Position numbers and translations under genes: made by a program
Notes under the pieces: generated by a model
Databases searched by the model: none
Told to the model about the DNA's origin: nothing
Seen by the model: the letters and a program-made list of their open reading frames with translations, nothing else
DNA from: an uncultured Acidimicrobiia bacterium
GTDB taxonomy: Bacteria; Actinomycetota; Acidimicrobiia; Spongiisociales; UBA5794
Assembly: GCA_963714375.1 (NCBI GenBank)
Contig: CAVQOG010000003.1
Location: 297,457-361,456, forward strand
Direction of reading: 5' to 3'
Length of the DNA stretch: 64,000 nt
In this document: one piece after another, positions 6,341-17,057 of the stretch
Layout: each line of letters opens with the position of its first letter
How positions within the stretch are numbered: the first letter of the stretch is position 1

Positions 6341-6417
6341 CGGGACGTGGCGCAGCACGGCAGCGCGCATCGTTCGGGACGATGAGGTCGTCGGTTCAAA
6401 TCCGACCGTCCCGACCA
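6341..6417 (+). tRNA. tRNA-Pro (anticodon CGG)
   Basis: Hand-folded cloverleaf: acceptor CGGGACG/CGTCCCG, D-stem GCGC/GCGC, anticodon stem CATCG/CGATG with loop TTCGGGA (G37), T-stem GTCGG/CCGAC with TTCAAAT loop, discriminator A, encoded CCA. Confidence 0.85.
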
Positions 6418-10519: not shown

Positions 10520-10687
10520 ATGGCAACGGACAAACGCGACAGGCAGCGGGCAAACCGCGAGTTGAAGAAGGAAGAGCAAGCCAAGGCAAACGTCAAGAAG
10601 AGGCGCATGGACATTGTCAAGCGCTATGCGGGTTACACCGTCATCTTTGCCATTGCGCTTATTGCGCTCAAGGTCTTCTTCGGTTGA
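10520..10687 (+). CDS. small tail-anchored membrane protein (hypothetical)
   Basis: K/R-rich N-terminus and a single C-terminal TM helix (YTVIFAIALIALKVFFG). Start chosen as the internal MATDKRDR. Confidence 0.3.
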   Translation: MATDKRDRQRANRELKKEEQAKANVKKRRMDIVKRYAGYTVIFAIALIALKVFFG

Positions 10688-11529
10688 GCGGACTCACAGA
10701 CCTTCACCTTCACTCCAATCGATCGGACGGGGCAGAATCCCCCACACGACTTGTCGAGATGACGGCTGAGGCTGGTGTGTCGACAATGGCCCTCGTCGAC
10801 CACGATGTCCTTGACGGTCTCAACGAAGCAAGAATCGCTGCCGAATCCCACGGAATTCAGTTCATCCCCGGAATCGAACTCTCGGTTGACCACAACGGAA
10901 CGAAGATGCACATGCTTGTGTACTTCATCGAGGACAAGCCTGGTCCGCTCGAGGCGAAGTTGGCGTGGCTTCGCGACGGCAGAAACCAACGCAACAGGGA
11001 GATCGTCAAGAACCTCACCGACCTCGGGTACGAGATCACGATCGAGGACGTCTTGCGGTGGGCCGCCGGTGAGTCTGTTGGCCGCCCACACATCGCAGAT
11101 GCCCTCGTTGAGATCGGGGTGGTCGAAAACCGCGATGGGGCATTTGACGGTCTCCTCCAGGACGGCGGACTCGTCTATGTCGAGCGCAACCGTCTCACCG
11201 CGCTCGAAGCAATTGCCCTTGCCAGGGACGGTGGTGGCGTCCCCGTCGTGGCACATCCCAGGACGATTTCGGGAGGGGCTGCCGATTATGCGATTTTGTT
11301 CGAGGAACTTGTCGATGGGGGGCTTGGTGGGATCGAGGCACATCATGCCTCCCATTCCCCCGAGCTTCGCGAGCACCTCACAACAATGGCGCATCACCTC
11401 GGAATTGCCGCGACCGGAGGTTCGGACTTCCATGGCAACAAGAACCGTGACTTTCGTATCGGTGTCGGGACCGGCGATCTGCGGGTCCCGGAAACCGCCG
11501 TGGAAGAACTCCTGGCTCAGCGTGAGTGA
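10684..11529 (+). CDS. PHP-domain metal-dependent phosphoesterase (TrpH/YciV family)
   Basis: TTG start. HLHSNRSDG N-terminal PHP motif and further His/Asp ligand motifs across 281 aa. Confidence 0.8.
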   Translation: MSGLTDLHLHSNRSDGAESPTRLVEMTAEAGVSTMALVDHDVLDGLNEARIAAESHGIQFIPGIELSVDHNGTKMHMLVYFIEDKPGPLEAKLAWLRDGRNQRNREIVKNLTDLGYEITIEDVLRWAAGESVGRPHIADALVEIGVVENRDGAFDGLLQDGGLVYVERNRLTALEAIALARDGGGVPVVAHPRTISGGAADYAILFEELVDGGLGGIEAHHASHSPELREHLTTMAHHLGIAATGGSDFHGNKNRDFRIGVGTGDLRVPETAVEELLAQRE

Positions 11530-11575
11530 TCGCGGAGTTGCTCGCTGCAGGAATCGTGCTAGCGTTCCGTCTCCA

Positions 11576-11632
11576 ATGAGACAGCAGACCACCCACGTCC
11601 ATCACCATCACCACCCATCGGTGGTCGGTTGA
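11576..11632 (+). CDS. hisL: histidine operon leader peptide MRQQTTHVHHHHHPSVVG
   Basis: 18 codons. Six His codons, five of them consecutive (CAT CAC CAT CAC CAC). Ends TGA at 11630-11632, 28 nt before the attenuator hairpin and about 100 nt before hisG. Confidence 0.6.
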   Translation: MRQQTTHVHHHHHPSVVG

Positions 11633-11659
11633 ACGTGGACACTTAGGTAAAGAACCACA

Positions 11660-11688
11660 CGCCGACCCGCAACGGTCGGCGTTTTTTT
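11660..11688 (+). terminator. rho-independent attenuator/terminator upstream of hisG
   Basis: 8-bp GC stem CGCCGACC/GGTCGGCG, 6-nt loop, then T7. Upstream GGTGGTCGG at 11620-11628 can alternatively pair with CCGACC, which is an antiterminator arrangement. Confidence 0.65.
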
Positions 11689-11734
11689 GTTCTCAAAAGG
11701 ACCCGGCCAGCAGGTCGACGGGAGAGGATCCCCG

Positions 11735-12613
11735 TTGATCAACAAGCCAACACAACCTGACACCCTACGTTTCGCAGTGCCCAAGGGCCGCACCGAGGCC
11801 GGCGTTCGAACGCTCCTTGCCGACGCTGGTATCGAACTGCGTTCCGGCCCGCGGGGCTATCGGCCGATTCCATCTGTACCTTGGCTTGAGGCCAAGCTCC
11901 TCAAACCTCAGAACATTGTCGAGATGCTCGCTGCGGGGTCTCGCGATATCGGTTTCGCTGGTGCCGATTGGGTCGCAGAAAAGCAAGCGGACCTCGTTGA
12001 GCTTCTCGATACTGGACTCGATCCGGTCAGCGTCGTTGCCGCAGCGCCGACAGATCTCCTCGTCGACAATGCCCTACCCCGTCGACGACTCGTCATTGCA
12101 AGCGAGCTGACTCGGCTCACCGCCGCATGGGTTGCGGCCCAGAACCTCGATGTGGACATCATCCGCTCGTACGGAGCCACGGAGGTGTTTCCGCCGGAGG
12201 ACGCCGACGTGATTGTCGATATCACGGCAACAGGAGAAACGCTTGCGGCGAACCAACTTGTGGTGATTGACACGATCATGGATTCCTCGACCCGGCTCTA
12301 TGCAAGTCGCGAAGCCATGGCCGACACCTCCAAGAAGCAGAATATTGAAGCTCTGGTTCTTGGTCTCGACTCAGTGCTTGCAGCAAGATCCAGGGTGATG
12401 GTCGAGCTCAACATCGCCATCGATATCTCCGACGGTCTGTTCCGTGTCCTCCCTTCGATGCGGGAACCGACCGTCTCCCCACTCCATGGCGGAGGAGCGC
12501 TTGCCGTAAAGGCGGCTGTCCCACGCAAAGAGCTGCCGGAGCTGATCCCGGCACTCAAGGAAGCAGGAGCGACCGACATCGTCGTGTCGCGATTGGAGCA
12601 GATCGTCCCATGA
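11735..12613 (+). CDS. hisG: ATP phosphoribosyltransferase (long form with C-terminal regulatory domain)
   Basis: LRFAVPKGR N-terminal motif. TTG start at 11735 with a GGAGAGG box 7 nt upstream. The ORF-track N-terminus from 11687 overlaps the attenuator. Confidence 0.85.
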   Translation: MINKPTQPDTLRFAVPKGRTEAGVRTLLADAGIELRSGPRGYRPIPSVPWLEAKLLKPQNIVEMLAAGSRDIGFAGADWVAEKQADLVELLDTGLDPVSVVAAAPTDLLVDNALPRRRLVIASELTRLTAAWVAAQNLDVDIIRSYGATEVFPPEDADVIVDITATGETLAANQLVVIDTIMDSSTRLYASREAMADTSKKQNIEALVLGLDSVLAARSRVMVELNIAIDISDGLFRVLPSMREPTVSPLHGGGALAVKAAVPRKELPELIPALKEAGATDIVVSRLEQIVP

Positions 12614-13194
12614 CCCGATCCATCACACTTTCACGAAACACGGCGGAGGTCCAGATTTCAGGGAACCTCACGCTGGACGGGACCGGAATCGCAGAGATCT
12701 CCACCGGTCTCGGCTTCTTGGACCACATGCTGACAGCGCTGACTCGGCACTCCGGCTTCGATCTCAGGCTCGATGTTCAAGGTGACACCGGGGTCGACGA
12801 CCACCACACCGTCGAAGACTGTGCGATCGTTATCGGTCGGGCAATAGACGAGCTGCTCGGTGACCGCAGCGGGATTGATCGCTTCGGATCTGCGTATGTG
12901 CCCCTCGACGAATCTCTCGCACGGGCGGTCGTCGATTGCTCGGGAAGGGGATGGCCAGAAATTCGCCTTTCGCTTGAACGCGAGAAGATCGGGGATGTCG
13001 CAGCCGAAAACATCACGCATTTCTTTCGATCACTCGCACTCGAGGGACGAATGGCACTCCATGTCGATGTGCTCAGAGGAGACAACGACCATCACAAGGC
13101 AGAGGCAGCGTTCAAGGCCACGGCGCGTGCACTGAGGAGTGCCGTAGCAACCAATGATGGTCGGATTCTCAGCACCAAGGAGGTCTTGGGGTGA
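12610..13194 (+). CDS. hisB: imidazoleglycerol-phosphate dehydratase
   Basis: GFLDHML and DxHHxxE metal motifs. 194 aa. Start overlaps the hisG stop. Confidence 0.9.
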   Translation: MTRSITLSRNTAEVQISGNLTLDGTGIAEISTGLGFLDHMLTALTRHSGFDLRLDVQGDTGVDDHHTVEDCAIVIGRAIDELLGDRSGIDRFGSAYVPLDESLARAVVDCSGRGWPEIRLSLEREKIGDVAAENITHFFRSLALEGRMALHVDVLRGDNDHHKAEAAFKATARALRSAVATNDGRILSTKEVLG

Positions 13195-13802
13195 GCCACG
13201 ATGTGATCGTGGTTCCGACGGGGACCGCCAACATTGCCTCGGTGCTTGCAGCCTTTGGCCGCCTCGGAGTCAAGGCAAGCATTTCGACTGATCCGGATCG
13301 CATTGGCACCGCATCGGGTGTTGTCATGCCGGGTGTCGGAACGTTCGGTGCTGCGGTCCGAGAGTTGGACCGGATCGGCGTCAGGCAAGCCCTCCTCACA
13401 AGGATCGAAGCAGACATGCCGACCATGGCGATCTGTGTTGGTCTCCAGATCTTTGCCGAGACGAGCGAGGAGAGCCCCGGGGTGAGTGGTCTCGGTGTCA
13501 TGGCCTCGACAATGACACGGTTCCCAGCGCAGGTCACCGTTCCCCAGCTTGGGTGGAACAGGGTCCACCATTCTGAAAACTCGAGATTCGTTCGGTCGGG
13601 TTGGGCGTACTTTGCGAATTCATATCGTTTGACGACAGCTCCCGAAGGGTGGGTACCAGCGACGGCAAGTCACGGTGGCCAGTTCGTTGCTGCAATCGAG
13701 CGCGGCAACGTGCTTGCCTGCCAATTTCACCCCGAGCTCTCTGGCCAGTGGGGACTCGGGGTTATCGATGCTTGGCTCGACACAACGAAGGGGTCGAAGT
13801 AA
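13191..13802 (+). CDS. hisH: imidazole glycerol phosphate synthase, glutamine amidotransferase subunit
   Basis: Class-I GATase. Catalytic Cys in the MAICVGLQ region and the HPE triad. Confidence 0.9.
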   Translation: MSHDVIVVPTGTANIASVLAAFGRLGVKASISTDPDRIGTASGVVMPGVGTFGAAVRELDRIGVRQALLTRIEADMPTMAICVGLQIFAETSEESPGVSGLGVMASTMTRFPAQVTVPQLGWNRVHHSENSRFVRSGWAYFANSYRLTTAPEGWVPATASHGGQFVAAIERGNVLACQFHPELSGQWGLGVIDAWLDTTKGSK

Positions 13803-14554
13803 TGCTTGCTCCACGAGTCATCCCGTGCCTTGACGTTGACGGTGGGCGGGTCGTGAAGGGGGTTCAATTCTCAGATCTTCGCGACGCGGGGGATCCTGTG
13901 GAGATTGCAGCCAACTATGAGCAGCAGGGTGCCGACGAAATCGTGATCCTCGACGTGTCGGCAACACCCGAAGGCAGAGGCAACGCCCTGGCAACCGTTT
14001 CTGCCGTTCGGTCTGTGCTCACGATCCCGCTGACAGTCGGGGGCGGCGTACGGTCCACCGCCGATGCTGGTCGCCTCCTGAACGCGGGTGCAGACCGTGT
14101 AGCGACCAATACGGCAGCCGTCGAACGCCCCGAACTCATCGCTGAGATCGCTGCCCAGTTCGGTGCCCAATGCACGGTCGTCTCGATCGACGCCGGGCGA
14201 CGCGATGGCGGTTGGGAAGTCCTCACGAGGAGCGGGAAGACACGAATGGGAATAGAGGTTGGAGACTGGTCTGTCCAGTGTGGTGAGCTTGGCGCCGGTG
14301 AGATCCTGCTGACGAGCTGGGATCGCGACGGAACCCGATCTGGCTACGACACCGATCTGTTGTCCTTTGTCTCGCGCCTTGTGACAATTCCGATCATCGC
14401 ATCGGGCGGGGCCGGACAGGCAGACGACCTCGTCGCCGCGATCAAGGCGGGGGCGTCGGCCGTGCTTGTCGCCTCGCTTCTCCATGACCGGGATCTGACG
14501 GTCTCCGACCTGAAGGGGGCCATGTCACAACAAGGGATCGAGGTACGAGAATGA
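13802..14554 (+). CDS. hisF: imidazole glycerol phosphate synthase, cyclase subunit
   Basis: RVIPCLDVDGGRVVKG start. ATG at 13802 overlaps the hisH TAA stop. The ORF-track start at 13601 is an upstream extension. Confidence 0.9.
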   Translation: MLAPRVIPCLDVDGGRVVKGVQFSDLRDAGDPVEIAANYEQQGADEIVILDVSATPEGRGNALATVSAVRSVLTIPLTVGGGVRSTADAGRLLNAGADRVATNTAAVERPELIAEIAAQFGAQCTVVSIDAGRRDGGWEVLTRSGKTRMGIEVGDWSVQCGELGAGEILLTSWDRDGTRSGYDTDLLSFVSRLVTIPIIASGGAGQADDLVAAIKAGASAVLVASLLHDRDLTVSDLKGAMSQQGIEVRE

Positions 14555-15813
14555 TTGTCCCATCGATCGACATCGTCGGGGGCTGTGCCGTACAGCTCGT
14601 CGGTGGCGAAACGCTTGCAGTCGATGCGGGTGATCCGAGACCGCTCATGGAGCGATTCTCGGTGGTGGGTGAGGTCGCTGTCATCGACATCGATGCTGCA
14701 AGGGGCGATACCAGCAACCGTGCAGCAATCGTTGAACTCTGCTCCCTGGGTCGAGTCCGCGTTGGTGGGGGAATCCGAGATATTGACACGGCCCTCGAAT
14801 GGCTCGACGCAGGCGCTGACAAGATCATCGTCGGGACTGCAGCGACCCCCGGGTTCCTGCGAGAACTCCCGATGGAAAGGGTCATCGTTGCCCTCGATGC
14901 GCGCGATGGCGCAATCGTGACCCACGGATGGAGGACGCAAACCGACCGGCCGCTCATCGAATCGGTTGCCGAGCTCGCGGATCTCTGCGGCGGATTTCTT
15001 GTCACCTTCGTTGAGCGCGAGGGTCGCCTCAAGGGAACCGACATGGACCTCGCGACGCGGGTCATCAATTCGGCAGGGCAGGCCAGCGTGACAATTGCAG
15101 GTGGCATCACGACAGCCGACGAAATTGCAGCCCTGGATGCGCTTGGTGCTGATGCCCAGGTAGGAATGGCGCTCTACAAGGAACAACTCAGCCTCGCCGA
15201 CGCCGTGTCGGCGCCGCTCATCTCCGACAGGAGCGACGGTTTGTGGCCGACAATCGTCACCGACGAGCGCGGCGTTGCACTCGGCCTTGCCTGGTCCGAT
15301 GCGGAAAGCTTGGCGAATGCGATCGAAACGCGGACAGGGACCTACCACAGTCGAACGCGGGGCCTCTGGCAGAAGGGGGCATCGTCGGGGGCAACCCAGC
15401 GGTTGCTCCGGATCGACGTCGATTGTGATCGGGATGCCATGCGGTTCATGGTCGAGCAGAGCGATCCAGGTTTCTGCCACACAAACACCCGAACATGCTT
15501 TGGCGACGATGGCGGGATCGGGCGGCTCGCCCGTCGGCTCGAAACGATACGAAGTGAACGCCCAAGCGGATCAAACACGGTCGCGTTGTTCGATGATGAC
15601 CGACTGCTCGCAGACAAACTGCTTGAGGAGGCTGGAGAACTCGTCGCCGCAACAACGACGCGGGAGGTCCTCCATGAGACCGCTGATGTCATCTACTTTG
15701 CCCTTGCCAAAGCGGTCGCATCCGGCGTATCGATCCGTGCGATCGAGGACGAGCTGGATGCCCGAGAGCAGAAGGTCACCCGCAGGCCCATGACAAGGAA
15801 GACAGACACATGA
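14551..15813 (+). CDS. hisA-hisIE: trifunctional fusion: ProFAR isomerase (HisA/PriA-like), phosphoribosyl-AMP cyclohydrolase (HisI) and phosphoribosyl-ATP pyrophosphatase (HisE)
   Basis: Residues 1-240: IVPSIDIVGGCAV...GGGIR...AGGITT HisA barrel. Residues about 245-340: WSDAESLANAIETRTGTYHSRTRGLWQKGASSG...CHT..TCF (HisI). Residues about 340-420: VLHETADVIYFALA (HisE). Single uninterrupted frame. Confidence 0.8.
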   Translation: MIVPSIDIVGGCAVQLVGGETLAVDAGDPRPLMERFSVVGEVAVIDIDAARGDTSNRAAIVELCSLGRVRVGGGIRDIDTALEWLDAGADKIIVGTAATPGFLRELPMERVIVALDARDGAIVTHGWRTQTDRPLIESVAELADLCGGFLVTFVEREGRLKGTDMDLATRVINSAGQASVTIAGGITTADEIAALDALGADAQVGMALYKEQLSLADAVSAPLISDRSDGLWPTIVTDERGVALGLAWSDAESLANAIETRTGTYHSRTRGLWQKGASSGATQRLLRIDVDCDRDAMRFMVEQSDPGFCHTNTRTCFGDDGGIGRLARRLETIRSERPSGSNTVALFDDDRLLADKLLEEAGELVAATTTREVLHETADVIYFALAKAVASGVSIRAIEDELDAREQKVTRRPMTRKTDT

Positions 15814-17057
15814 TCCCTCGAGTGGCACCAACTGATCTTGCTGGCATGCACGCCCGACGACGCCTTGAAAGCACTGACGCAGCCGATGTCGCCGCTGCCA
15901 TTGTTGAGGAGGTTCGCAGCGGAGGTGAGGGTGCCCTCAGAGCACTGGGGGTCAGATTCGGGGACATCGCCGCCCATGAATCGCTCGTGATAGGCGGCCC
16001 CGACTTGAAAGCTGCTCTTGCGCGAATTCCTGCAAACGAGCGGGCTGCCCTCGGACGAGCTGCGGACCGAATCGAGCGCTTCGCTCAGGCACAGCGCTCG
16101 ACGTTCACGAACCTCACCGTTGCGGTTCCGGGAGGTACGGCGGGACACCGTTGGATCCCAGTCGATTCGGTTGGGGCATACGCGCCCGGGGGACGGTATC
16201 CGCTTCCCTCATCCGTACTGATGACCGTGATCCCAGCACGTGTTGCTGGTGTTCGAACCGTGTGGGTTGCATCACCACGACCCACTGACACCGTTCTCGC
16301 AGCCGCTGCGATCGCGGGTGCCGATGCATTGATTCCGATCGGTGGCGCACAAGCCATCGCTGCTCTCGCCTTCGGAACCGTTGGGCCGAGGTGCGATGTC
16401 GTTGTCGGACCTGGCAACCGATGGGTGACCGCTGCCAAGAAGTACCTCTACGGGGAGATCGGAATCGACGGCCTTGCTGGTCCGAGCGAGATCCTCGTCA
16501 TCGCCGACGGCAATGCTGATCCTGATCTTGTGGCGGCCGACCTACTCGCCCAAGCAGAACACGATCCCGATGCAATGCCCATACTCGTCACACTCACGAA
16601 CGGCATGCTCGAGGCTGTGACCAGGTCAATCGACGAGCAACTCACAGACCTCCCGACTGCTCCGATCGCTCAGAAAGCACTCGAAAATGGTTTCTCCCTT
16701 GTCGTTGACTCAATCGGCGACGCAGTCCGCATCTCGAACGAGATTGCACCGGAACACCTGGCTTTGCATATCGATGACGCCGAAAAGATCGTTCCCGATC
16801 TGACGTCGTACGGGTCTGCCTTCGTTGGAAGCTCCTCTGCCGAGGCATTCGCAGACTACGGGGCTGGTCCAAATCATGTCCTCCCCACCGCGGGAGGGGC
16901 CCGCTATCAGTCAGGGCTATCGGTGTCGACGTACCTGCGTTCACCAACATGGCTACGCCTTGACAATCCGACCACCCTGATCGACGAGACTGTTCTGCTT
17001 GCCGGTATCGAGGGCCTTGTCGGACATGCCAGAGCGGCCAAGCGGCGATCGAGCTGA
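15810..17057 (+). CDS. hisD: histidinol dehydrogenase
   Basis: Start overlaps hisA-IE. Motifs GPGNRWVTAAK and AQAEHDP..HGG. Confidence 0.9.
   Translation: MIPRVAPTDLAGMHARRRLESTDAADVAAAIVEEVRSGGEGALRALGVRFGDIAAHESLVIGGPDLKAALARIPANERAALGRAADRIERFAQAQRSTFTNLTVAVPGGTAGHRWIPVDSVGAYAPGGRYPLPSSVLMTVIPARVAGVRTVWVASPRPTDTVLAAAAIAGADALIPIGGAQAIAALAFGTVGPRCDVVVGPGNRWVTAAKKYLYGEIGIDGLAGPSEILVIADGNADPDLVAADLLAQAEHDPDAMPILVTLTNGMLEAVTRSIDEQLTDLPTAPIAQKALENGFSLVVDSIGDAVRISNEIAPEHLALHIDDAEKIVPDLTSYGSAFVGSSSAEAFADYGAGPNHVLPTAGGARYQSGLSVSTYLRSPTWLRLDNPTTLIDETVLLAGIEGLVGHARAAKRRSS

Follow-up and report, generated by a model that had tools for sequence, protein, structure and literature searches.

The leader of the his operon in Salmonella and E. 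coli (hisL) consists of six segments, A to F, and in E. coli its short ORF carries seven His codons behind a normal 5′ UTR and Shine-Dalgarno (SD) sequence. Its regulatory logic is that a ribosome stalled on hungry His codons prevents the terminator from forming (PMC9413887). Across bacteria, his genes are reported to be controlled by leader-peptide attenuators in Proteobacteria and a few Firmicutes lineages, by T-boxes and HisR in Firmicutes, and by T-boxes in Actinobacteria (PMC9413887). Leaders with three to five His codons plus terminator and antiterminator hairpins have been proposed for the Bacillus cereus group, Peptostreptococcaceae and Erysipelotrichales, as comparative-genomics predictions only (Ashniev et al. 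2022, PMC9413887), and an early survey of Actinobacteria detected no conserved RNA structure ahead of their his genes (PMC1262725). Other points of comparison are the textbook model of the trp leader, as described in 10.1101/834739, the leaderless poly-Cys short ORFs of mycobacteria (Canestrari et al., bioRxiv 10.1101/834739), and the C. glutamicum ilvB leader peptide, which is cited as being formed without a ribosome-binding site (Morbach 2000, ref. 42 in PMC4046766).

We describe here an element upstream of hisG in a 64-kb stretch of DNA (the whole stretch analysed, hereafter the window). It very probably regulates the his operon by ribosome-mediated transcription attenuation in response to histidine, as its sequence, its predicted folds and its conservation indicate; its layout is trp-like, with four segments.

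Leader ORF, terminator and alternative folds

The six ORFs of the his operon are listed with the leader features in Table 1. The HisG product (292 aa) has the same length and sequence as a database protein (P0001). By its HisG homologues, the source organism belongs to the Acidimicrobiia, represented in this analysis by metagenome-assembled genomes. The operon is followed by a histidine kinase gene and preceded by a PHP-domain gene at 10684–11529. The gene order of the window is unlike that of most related loci, in which ~1.6 kb separate hisG from hisB. The sole match to an Rfam model at gathering level in the window is a tRNA gene at 6341–6414 (+).

Table 1. Positions of the leader elements and of the his genes in the window.
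Feature	Position	Strand	Basis or remarks
−35-like hexamer TTGCTC (family consensus TTGCCA)	11538..11543	+	conserved as TTGnnn in 36/44 tabulated sequences
−10-like hexamer TAGCGT (TAnnnT)	11560..11565	+	T, A and final T invariant in 39-sequence alignment
Leader ORF	11576..11632	+	18 codons + stop; product MRQQTTHVHHHHHPSVVG
Segment 1 (His codons CAC GTC CAT CAC CAT CAC CAC)	11594..11614	+	5′ arm of 1:2 hairpin in MFE; putative ribosome-stall sensor
1:2 hairpin (His-codon arm with GGUGGUCGG...CGUGG)	11593..11638	+	MFE and centroid structures; protector, possible pause hairpin
Segment 2 (GGTGGTCGGTTGAACGTGG)	11620..11638	+	last leader codons + stop codon; partner is segment 1 or segment 3
2:3 antiterminator (GGUCGGU 11623–11629 with GCCGACC 11661–11667)	11623..11667	+	MFE of constrained folds
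3:4 intrinsic terminator ACGCCGACC-CGCAAC-GGTCGGCGT + T7	11659..11688	+	consensus scan; 99.1% of cells paired in 39-sequence alignment
hisG SD sequence GGGAGAGGA	11720–11728	+	ahead of TTG start codon 11735–11737
his operon (hisG to hisD)	11735..17057	+	Pfam matches; frames overlap or abut
hisG	11735–12613	+	TTG start; long form with HisG_C regulatory domain
hisB	12610–13194	+	Pfam
hisH	13191–13802	+	Pfam
hisF	13799–14554	+	Pfam
hisA-hisIE fusion	14551–15813	+	one 420-aa ORF: His_biosynth (HisA-like) + PRA-CH + PRA-PH domains
hisD	15810–17057	+	Pfam

An earlier note on this DNA, made from the letters, had pointed to an 18-codon ORF with five consecutive His codons, and this frame is borne out: it runs from ATG 11576–11578 to TGA 11630–11632, encodes MRQQTTHVHHHHHPSVVG and ends 102 nt upstream of the hisG start codon. 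The five consecutive His codons (11600–11614) are joined by a sixth at 11594–96, giving His at six of seven consecutive codons. The locus therefore has the consecutive-His short ORF directly upstream of hisG that characterizes leaders of the RF00514 type (MRQQTTHVHHHHHPSVVG, 11576–11632), and the run of regulatory codons that characterizes leader-peptide attenuators. In all six frames of the window (64 kb), five or more His residues in a row occur in the leader alone, with ~0.005 such runs expected from trinucleotide frequencies. The leader ORF is also the 3′ end of a 285-codon open frame (10775–11632, +) that overlaps the PHP-domain gene in another frame. The long frame is a spurious ORF typical of G+C-rich DNA, which gene callers could misread as a gene.

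Between this ORF and the first structural gene lies an intrinsic terminator (11659–11688), a further trait of leader-peptide attenuators. Its stem pairs 11659–11667 (ACGCCGACC) with 11674–11682 (GGTCGGCGT) in nine base pairs, seven of them G-C, around a loop of six, and runs into a T7 tract at 11682–11688. The hairpin and T7 tract had been placed 28 nt after the ORF; both are present, and the stem begins 26 nt after the stop codon if counted as 9 bp or 27 nt if counted as 8 bp. The stem motif is unique within the window, and the T7 tract is the sole T run of at least seven on either strand. Runs of at least six T number just four on both strands together, and only at the attenuator does a hairpin directly precede the run; canonical intrinsic terminators seem to be rare in the source genome.

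The leader RNA is far more stable than expected from its composition. For the 141-nt stretch 11560–11700 the folding energy is −49.1 kcal/mol; dinucleotide shuffles give −34.1 ± 3.5 kcal/mol (z = −4.35), and none of 200 matched the native sequence. Four segments build three alternative helices, 1:2, 2:3 and 3:4. Left unconstrained, the RNA folds as the 1:2 hairpin (11593–11638) plus the 3:4 terminator. When the transcript ends at 11668 and a ribosome-sized mask is laid on the His codons, the minimum free energy (MFE) structure is the 2:3 antiterminator at −15 to −16 kcal/mol, which includes an inner helix of GUGG 11635–38 with CCAC 11655–58. A mask on the stop codon covers segment 2, and the terminator alone forms. 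The folding check suggested by the earlier note, for mutually exclusive 2:3 and 3:4 helices, thus recovered both in constrained folds. The stretch that it had named as antiterminator, GGTGGTCGG (11620–11628), needs a shift in register: GGTCGG with the next T (11623–11629) pairs with the 5′ arm of the terminator, as proposed, whereas the first GGT is part of the 1:2 hairpin.

When the complete leader is folded with its His codons masked, the equilibrium structure is still the terminator, and the antiterminator is seen only before the 3′ arm has been transcribed. Because the terminator wins at equilibrium even in this state, the switch must be kinetic. The E. coli trp leader behaves likewise, its terminator being favoured over the antiterminator at equilibrium and its switch being kinetic. 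With its A site at 11612, on the last His codon, a stalled ribosome would cover part of segment 2.

Conservation among related hisG loci

Related loci were collected by a HisG-alignment scan with one genome per species, and 80 loci, all from uncultured MAGs, were taken out of > 540 matching hisG loci. With a mini-ORF defined by at least four His in seven residues ~90–130 nt upstream of hisG, a His-rich mini-ORF followed by a hairpin/T-tract terminator was found ahead of hisG in 68 of the 80 loci, whatever gene lay upstream. The terminator, a hairpin with a T-rich tract, sits 21–40 nt after the leader stop codon in every one of these 68. All 44 closest loci (63–88% HisG identity), most of which are labelled Acidimicrobiia, carry the element (L021 is cut by a contig end); their leader peptides have the consensus MNRLFAHAHHHHHPSRVG before the stop codon. 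His leaders upstream of hisG also occur in records labelled Gemmatimonadales, Longimicrobiales, Phycisphaerales and others. A similarity search with the leader DNA in plasmids gave no match.

Two of the related contigs deserve a remark of their own. Locus L001 (QQUL01000163.1), labelled Armatimonadetes, encodes a HisG that is 88% identical and has the same PHP and PPIase neighbours, and its leader is almost the same; the contig probably comes from an Acidimicrobiia genome and was mis-binned or mislabelled. Locus L009, from a related Acidimicrobiia MAG, has a SAM riboswitch (RF00162, 78.8 bits) at 892–981 (−), ~1.3 kb upstream of its his leader.

This sample bears on the possibility that the hairpin and T7 tract serve the PHP-domain gene (10684–11529) as its 3′ terminator and nothing else, and that the His ORF is a chance frame in GC-rich DNA. 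The PHP gene does lie on the same strand, its stop codon is 130 nt ahead of the terminator, no other terminator intervenes before hisG, and the mini-ORF is in frame with the long spurious ORF 10775–11632. However, a PHP gene is found upstream in just 3 of the 80 loci, compared with leader and terminator in 68, and the element therefore belongs with hisG and not with the upstream gene. Moreover, a conserved promoter separates the PHP stop codon from the leader ATG, a five-His run is expected 0.005 times per window, and the start codon, His run and stop codon keep their positions. The comparative data contradict this reading of the hairpin, which we regard as highly improbable.

Helices were counted in an alignment of 39 sequences of the closest loci, and 69 family members were folded singly. 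The 3:4 terminator is paired in 99.1% of cells, with one compensatory change from A-U to G-C, and is part of the MFE structure of 69/69 members. For the 2:3 helix, 94.9% of cells are pairable, compared with 11–50% for slid registers. Both helices are almost invariant among the 39 closest sequences, and the covariation scores of 2:3 do not exceed those of shuffles, invariance leaving nothing to score. Pairing of the His-codon region with the downstream leader (1:2) was found in 69/69 members; its register shifts between sequences, so that a fixed-column count of 61–72% paired understates it. All three states, namely the free leader, the His-stalled leader and the leader with a ribosome on the stop codon, were recovered in 69/69 members. 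By computation, then, the structures exclude one another and are conserved: in the folds of the window and of the 69 members there is an antiterminator that excludes the terminator and can itself be excluded, by the helix of the His codons or by a ribosome on the stop codon, as leader-peptide attenuation calls for.

The central base of segments 2, 3 and 4 was tabulated across phyla with regular expressions. The combination is U/A/U in 36 sequences and C/G/C in 12, with G·U intermediates in four and C·A mismatches in two (L012 and L017, in 2:3); these counts comprise few independent events. Such co-variation of three segments is the signature expected if segment 3 has segments 2 and 4 as alternative partners. 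The segment 2–segment 3 duplex has a median energy of −13.1 kcal/mol in 69 sequences, compared with −9.2 kcal/mol for dinucleotide shuffles, and reaches p ≤ 0.05 in 27 of these mutually related sequences where ~3.5 would be expected. As a test of single sequences it is weak, the stems being short and G+C-rich (p = 0.04 for the window, and many sequences at 0.05–0.2), and it is convincing in aggregate only.

Could the mini-ORF instead encode a His-rich micropeptide with a function of its own, such as metal binding, with the RNA structures being incidental? The peptide is fairly conserved (xxxFAHAHHHHHPSRVG), and so are the positions of the start codon, the His run and the stop codon across the 39 sequences. 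Yet GG-TCGG of segment 2 is invariant in the same alignment, even at the third base of the Val codon GTC, where a change would be synonymous, while the residue preceding the part that it encodes varies between R, W and V. Fixation at synonymous sites next to a variable residue places the constraint on the RNA, not on the peptide: the C-terminus may read RVG, WVG or VVG and the pairing is kept. In the other phyla, neither the length nor the sequence of the peptide is kept; what persists is the run of His and the potential to pair with the terminator. The mini-ORF is, furthermore, always immediately upstream of hisG. A micropeptide function is for these reasons very hard to credit.

A different alternative accepts stalling on the His codons and moves its effect to translation. 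Control would be translational, or transcriptional and translational together, with stalling remodelling the RNA to expose the hisG SD, and the hairpin and U tract would have a minor role or none. The closest actinobacterial precedent, the leaderless poly-Cys short ORFs of mycobacteria, is translational, and the U tract is imperfect (TTTCTCGTT) in most relatives. Relatives also share a conserved GGCGGGAAAGG motif ahead of the hisG start codon. In the window (11689–11734) and in loci L003–L044, the motif CC(G/C)(A/G)CCGC ... GGCGGGAAAGG may form a short hairpin touching the hisG SD, which would add a possible translational layer. Manual registers of this candidate hairpin gave 66–73% of cells paired, 73% at best, which is statistically weak, and RNAalifold returned no consensus structure for the terminator-to-hisG spacer of the relatives. 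In contrast, the canonical terminator that stands between leader and hisG SD is the best-conserved structure of the region (99% paired) and holds the sole T7 tract of the window, and the partner of segment 2 is a terminator arm, not the SD region. We consider a primarily or partly translational switch unlikely, and transcription attenuation remains the preferred reading.

Promoter and probable start of the leader transcript

The sequence immediately upstream of the leader ORF is conserved as well. Among the 44 closest sequences (the window and 43 loci), a TAnnnT hexamer ends 8–11 nt (mode 10) before the leader ATG in 44/44 and occurs at almost no other offset upstream of it. In 36 of the 44 sequences, including the window, TTGnnn is found 16–18 nt upstream of this −10-like element. 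A generic sigma-70 scan of the window did not call the leader promoter, which is visible through conservation alone. In the loci of other phyla, a TTGAC −35 lies ~37–39 nt before the ATG and a −10-like hexamer ~6–9 nt before it. No SD-like sequence was found between the −10 and the leader ATG in the 44 closest sequences or in the other phyla, the gap being too short to hold one.

Since the promoter ends 8–11 nt before the ATG and leaves no room for an SD, the leader ORF appears to be leaderless or nearly so. From this spacing we infer that the leader mRNA starts at the AUG or 1–4 nt upstream of it (a 5′ UTR of 0–4 nt), and that the leader peptide would be made by leaderless-type initiation. 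A start 2–4 nt upstream of the AUG would not be strictly leaderless, and its translatability is assumed. A conserved promoter with the leader immediately downstream supports the proposal of the earlier note that the element defines the start of the operon.

Loci from records of other phyla (among L045–L080; for example L047 2289–2435, L051 2321–2446 and L080 2301–2433) have a His leader with the same terminator core, ACGCCGGCC...GGCCGGCGT. This shared core and the TTGAC −35 suggest that the operon and its leader either descend from a common ancestor or were transferred horizontally as a unit. There is perhaps an even chance that the element belongs to a large, uncatalogued homologous family of leaderless His-leader attenuators, inherited or horizontally transferred with one particular long-form hisG clade across phyla (Acidimicrobiia, Gemmatimonadota, Planctomycetota/Phycisphaerae and others), and keeping the terminator core ACGCCGRCC...GGYCGGCGT and a start codon at the transcription start. 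If this were true, the first ribosome would load onto the 5′ end on its exit from RNA polymerase, and the coupling of transcription and translation on which attenuation depends would be built in.

Proposed mechanism and relation to known systems

In the mechanism that we propose, translation of the leader, stalling, termination and the response to histidine are all predicted steps. The promoter (−35 at 11538, −10 at 11560) would start transcription 0–4 nt before the ATG at 11576, and the 18-codon leader ORF would be translated by leaderless-type initiation. With His-tRNA plentiful, the ribosome would reach the UGA at 11630 and cover segment 2 (11620–11638); segment 3 (11659–11667) would then pair with segment 4 (11674–11682), and RNA polymerase would terminate in the U7 tract before hisG. 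With His-tRNA scarce, the ribosome would stall on the His codons at 11594–11614 (segment 1), and segment 2, left free, would pair with segment 3 (GGUCGGU with GCCGACC) once the latter has been transcribed. No terminator would form in this case, and transcription would run into hisG-hisB-hisH-hisF-hisA/IE-hisD. Where the leader is not translated, as on read-through transcripts from the PHP gene, on which the AUG is internal and has no SD, the 1:2 and 3:4 hairpins would form and transcription would terminate; we infer that the leader is untranslatable on transcripts from the upstream gene and that the operon is hence insulated from them.

The leader might, in principle, sense a ligand, a tRNA or a protein (as a T-box, a riboswitch or an antiterminator-protein site), with His codons that are incidental. 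The his genes of Corynebacterium and of many Firmicutes do use T-boxes (PMC9413887). However, T-box and riboswitch models gave no gathering-level match in the leader of the window or in those of 20 related loci, and none near the leader at E ≤ 10; the T-box model itself (RF00230) matched neither the window nor the 20 loci, in line with the earlier note, which had favoured an attenuator over a T-box. At ~110 nt the leader is too short for a T-box, which needs ~200 nt or more. The conserved ATG, stop codon and in-frame His run, moreover, point to translation. A sensor of this kind is accordingly most improbable here, and ribosome-mediated attenuation is the reading that we carry into the comparison with described leaders.

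The Rfam His_leader model (RF00514), against which the earlier note had recommended a check, has no match in the window at gathering thresholds, on 11450–11800 at E ≤ 10 with permissive filters, or in 20 homologous loci. The only Rfam resemblance of the leader is to Thr_leader, at 20 bits against a gathering score of 55 and hence below threshold; it is a sign of shared architecture, not of membership. No description of the element was found in the literature searched, although a conference paper of 2015 that deals with actinobacterial leader peptides containing His (ref. 18 of PMC4833913) may be prior art. The element is apparently uncatalogued; its mechanism class is well known, and it adds no new principle. 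Mildly notable are the seemingly leaderless leader ORF and a family that appears to cross phylum boundaries with hisG.

What the locus adds is a predicted classical attenuator at all 44 closest sampled hisG loci, with apparent relatives in records of other phyla, none of which is covered by an Rfam model. For annotators the element is a marker of the operon start, and the alignment of its members is ready to seed a new RNA family. It also contributes a case of a leader peptide that is seemingly translated from a leaderless mRNA, which bears on transcription–translation coupling outside the model enterics.

Among described systems, the candidate His attenuators of the Bacillus cereus group, Peptostreptococcaceae and Erysipelotrichales (PMC9413887) resemble the window element in being lineage-specific his leaders that RF00514 does not match; they belong to another phylum and are likened to it by description only. 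Within the same phylum, leader-peptide attenuation is known from the C. glutamicum ilvBNC leader and from the trpE, leuA and aroF leaders (PMC3890552), of which at least ilvB is cited as forming its peptide without a ribosome-binding site (PMC4046766). These leaders sense Val, Trp, Leu and Phe/Tyr, whereas the window element is predicted to sense His, and for histidine Corynebacterium uses a T-box (PMC9413887), unlike the window element. The mycobacterial poly-Cys short ORFs are leaderless ORFs of end-product codons that form the first cistron of a biosynthetic operon, with stalling as the sensor (10.1101/834739), an arrangement proposed here for the window element too. They differ in that they act translationally, the SD of the next gene being sequestered, and have no terminator (10.1101/834739), while the window element has a conserved terminator and U tract. 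The E. coli trpL leader, which senses another amino acid and has no sequence similarity to the window element, offers the same layout: regulatory codons in segment 1, a stop codon in or near segment 2, mutually exclusive 1:2, 2:3 and 3:4 helices, and a terminator that is more stable than the antiterminator.

Finally, the earlier note had ascribed to the element the enteric-type hisL mechanism. There is no detectable homology to hisL in sequence or structure (no RF00514 match at E ≤ 10), and the designation does not extend to the details: the window element has four segments, not six, 5 + 1 His codons, and an apparently leaderless leader ORF that lies 8–11 nt after the −10 and has no SD, in a high-GC Actinomycetota host. 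What holds is the mechanism class. As in enterobacterial hisL, hisG is preceded by a short ORF whose tandem His codons take part in a helix, and a terminator stands before the first structural gene.
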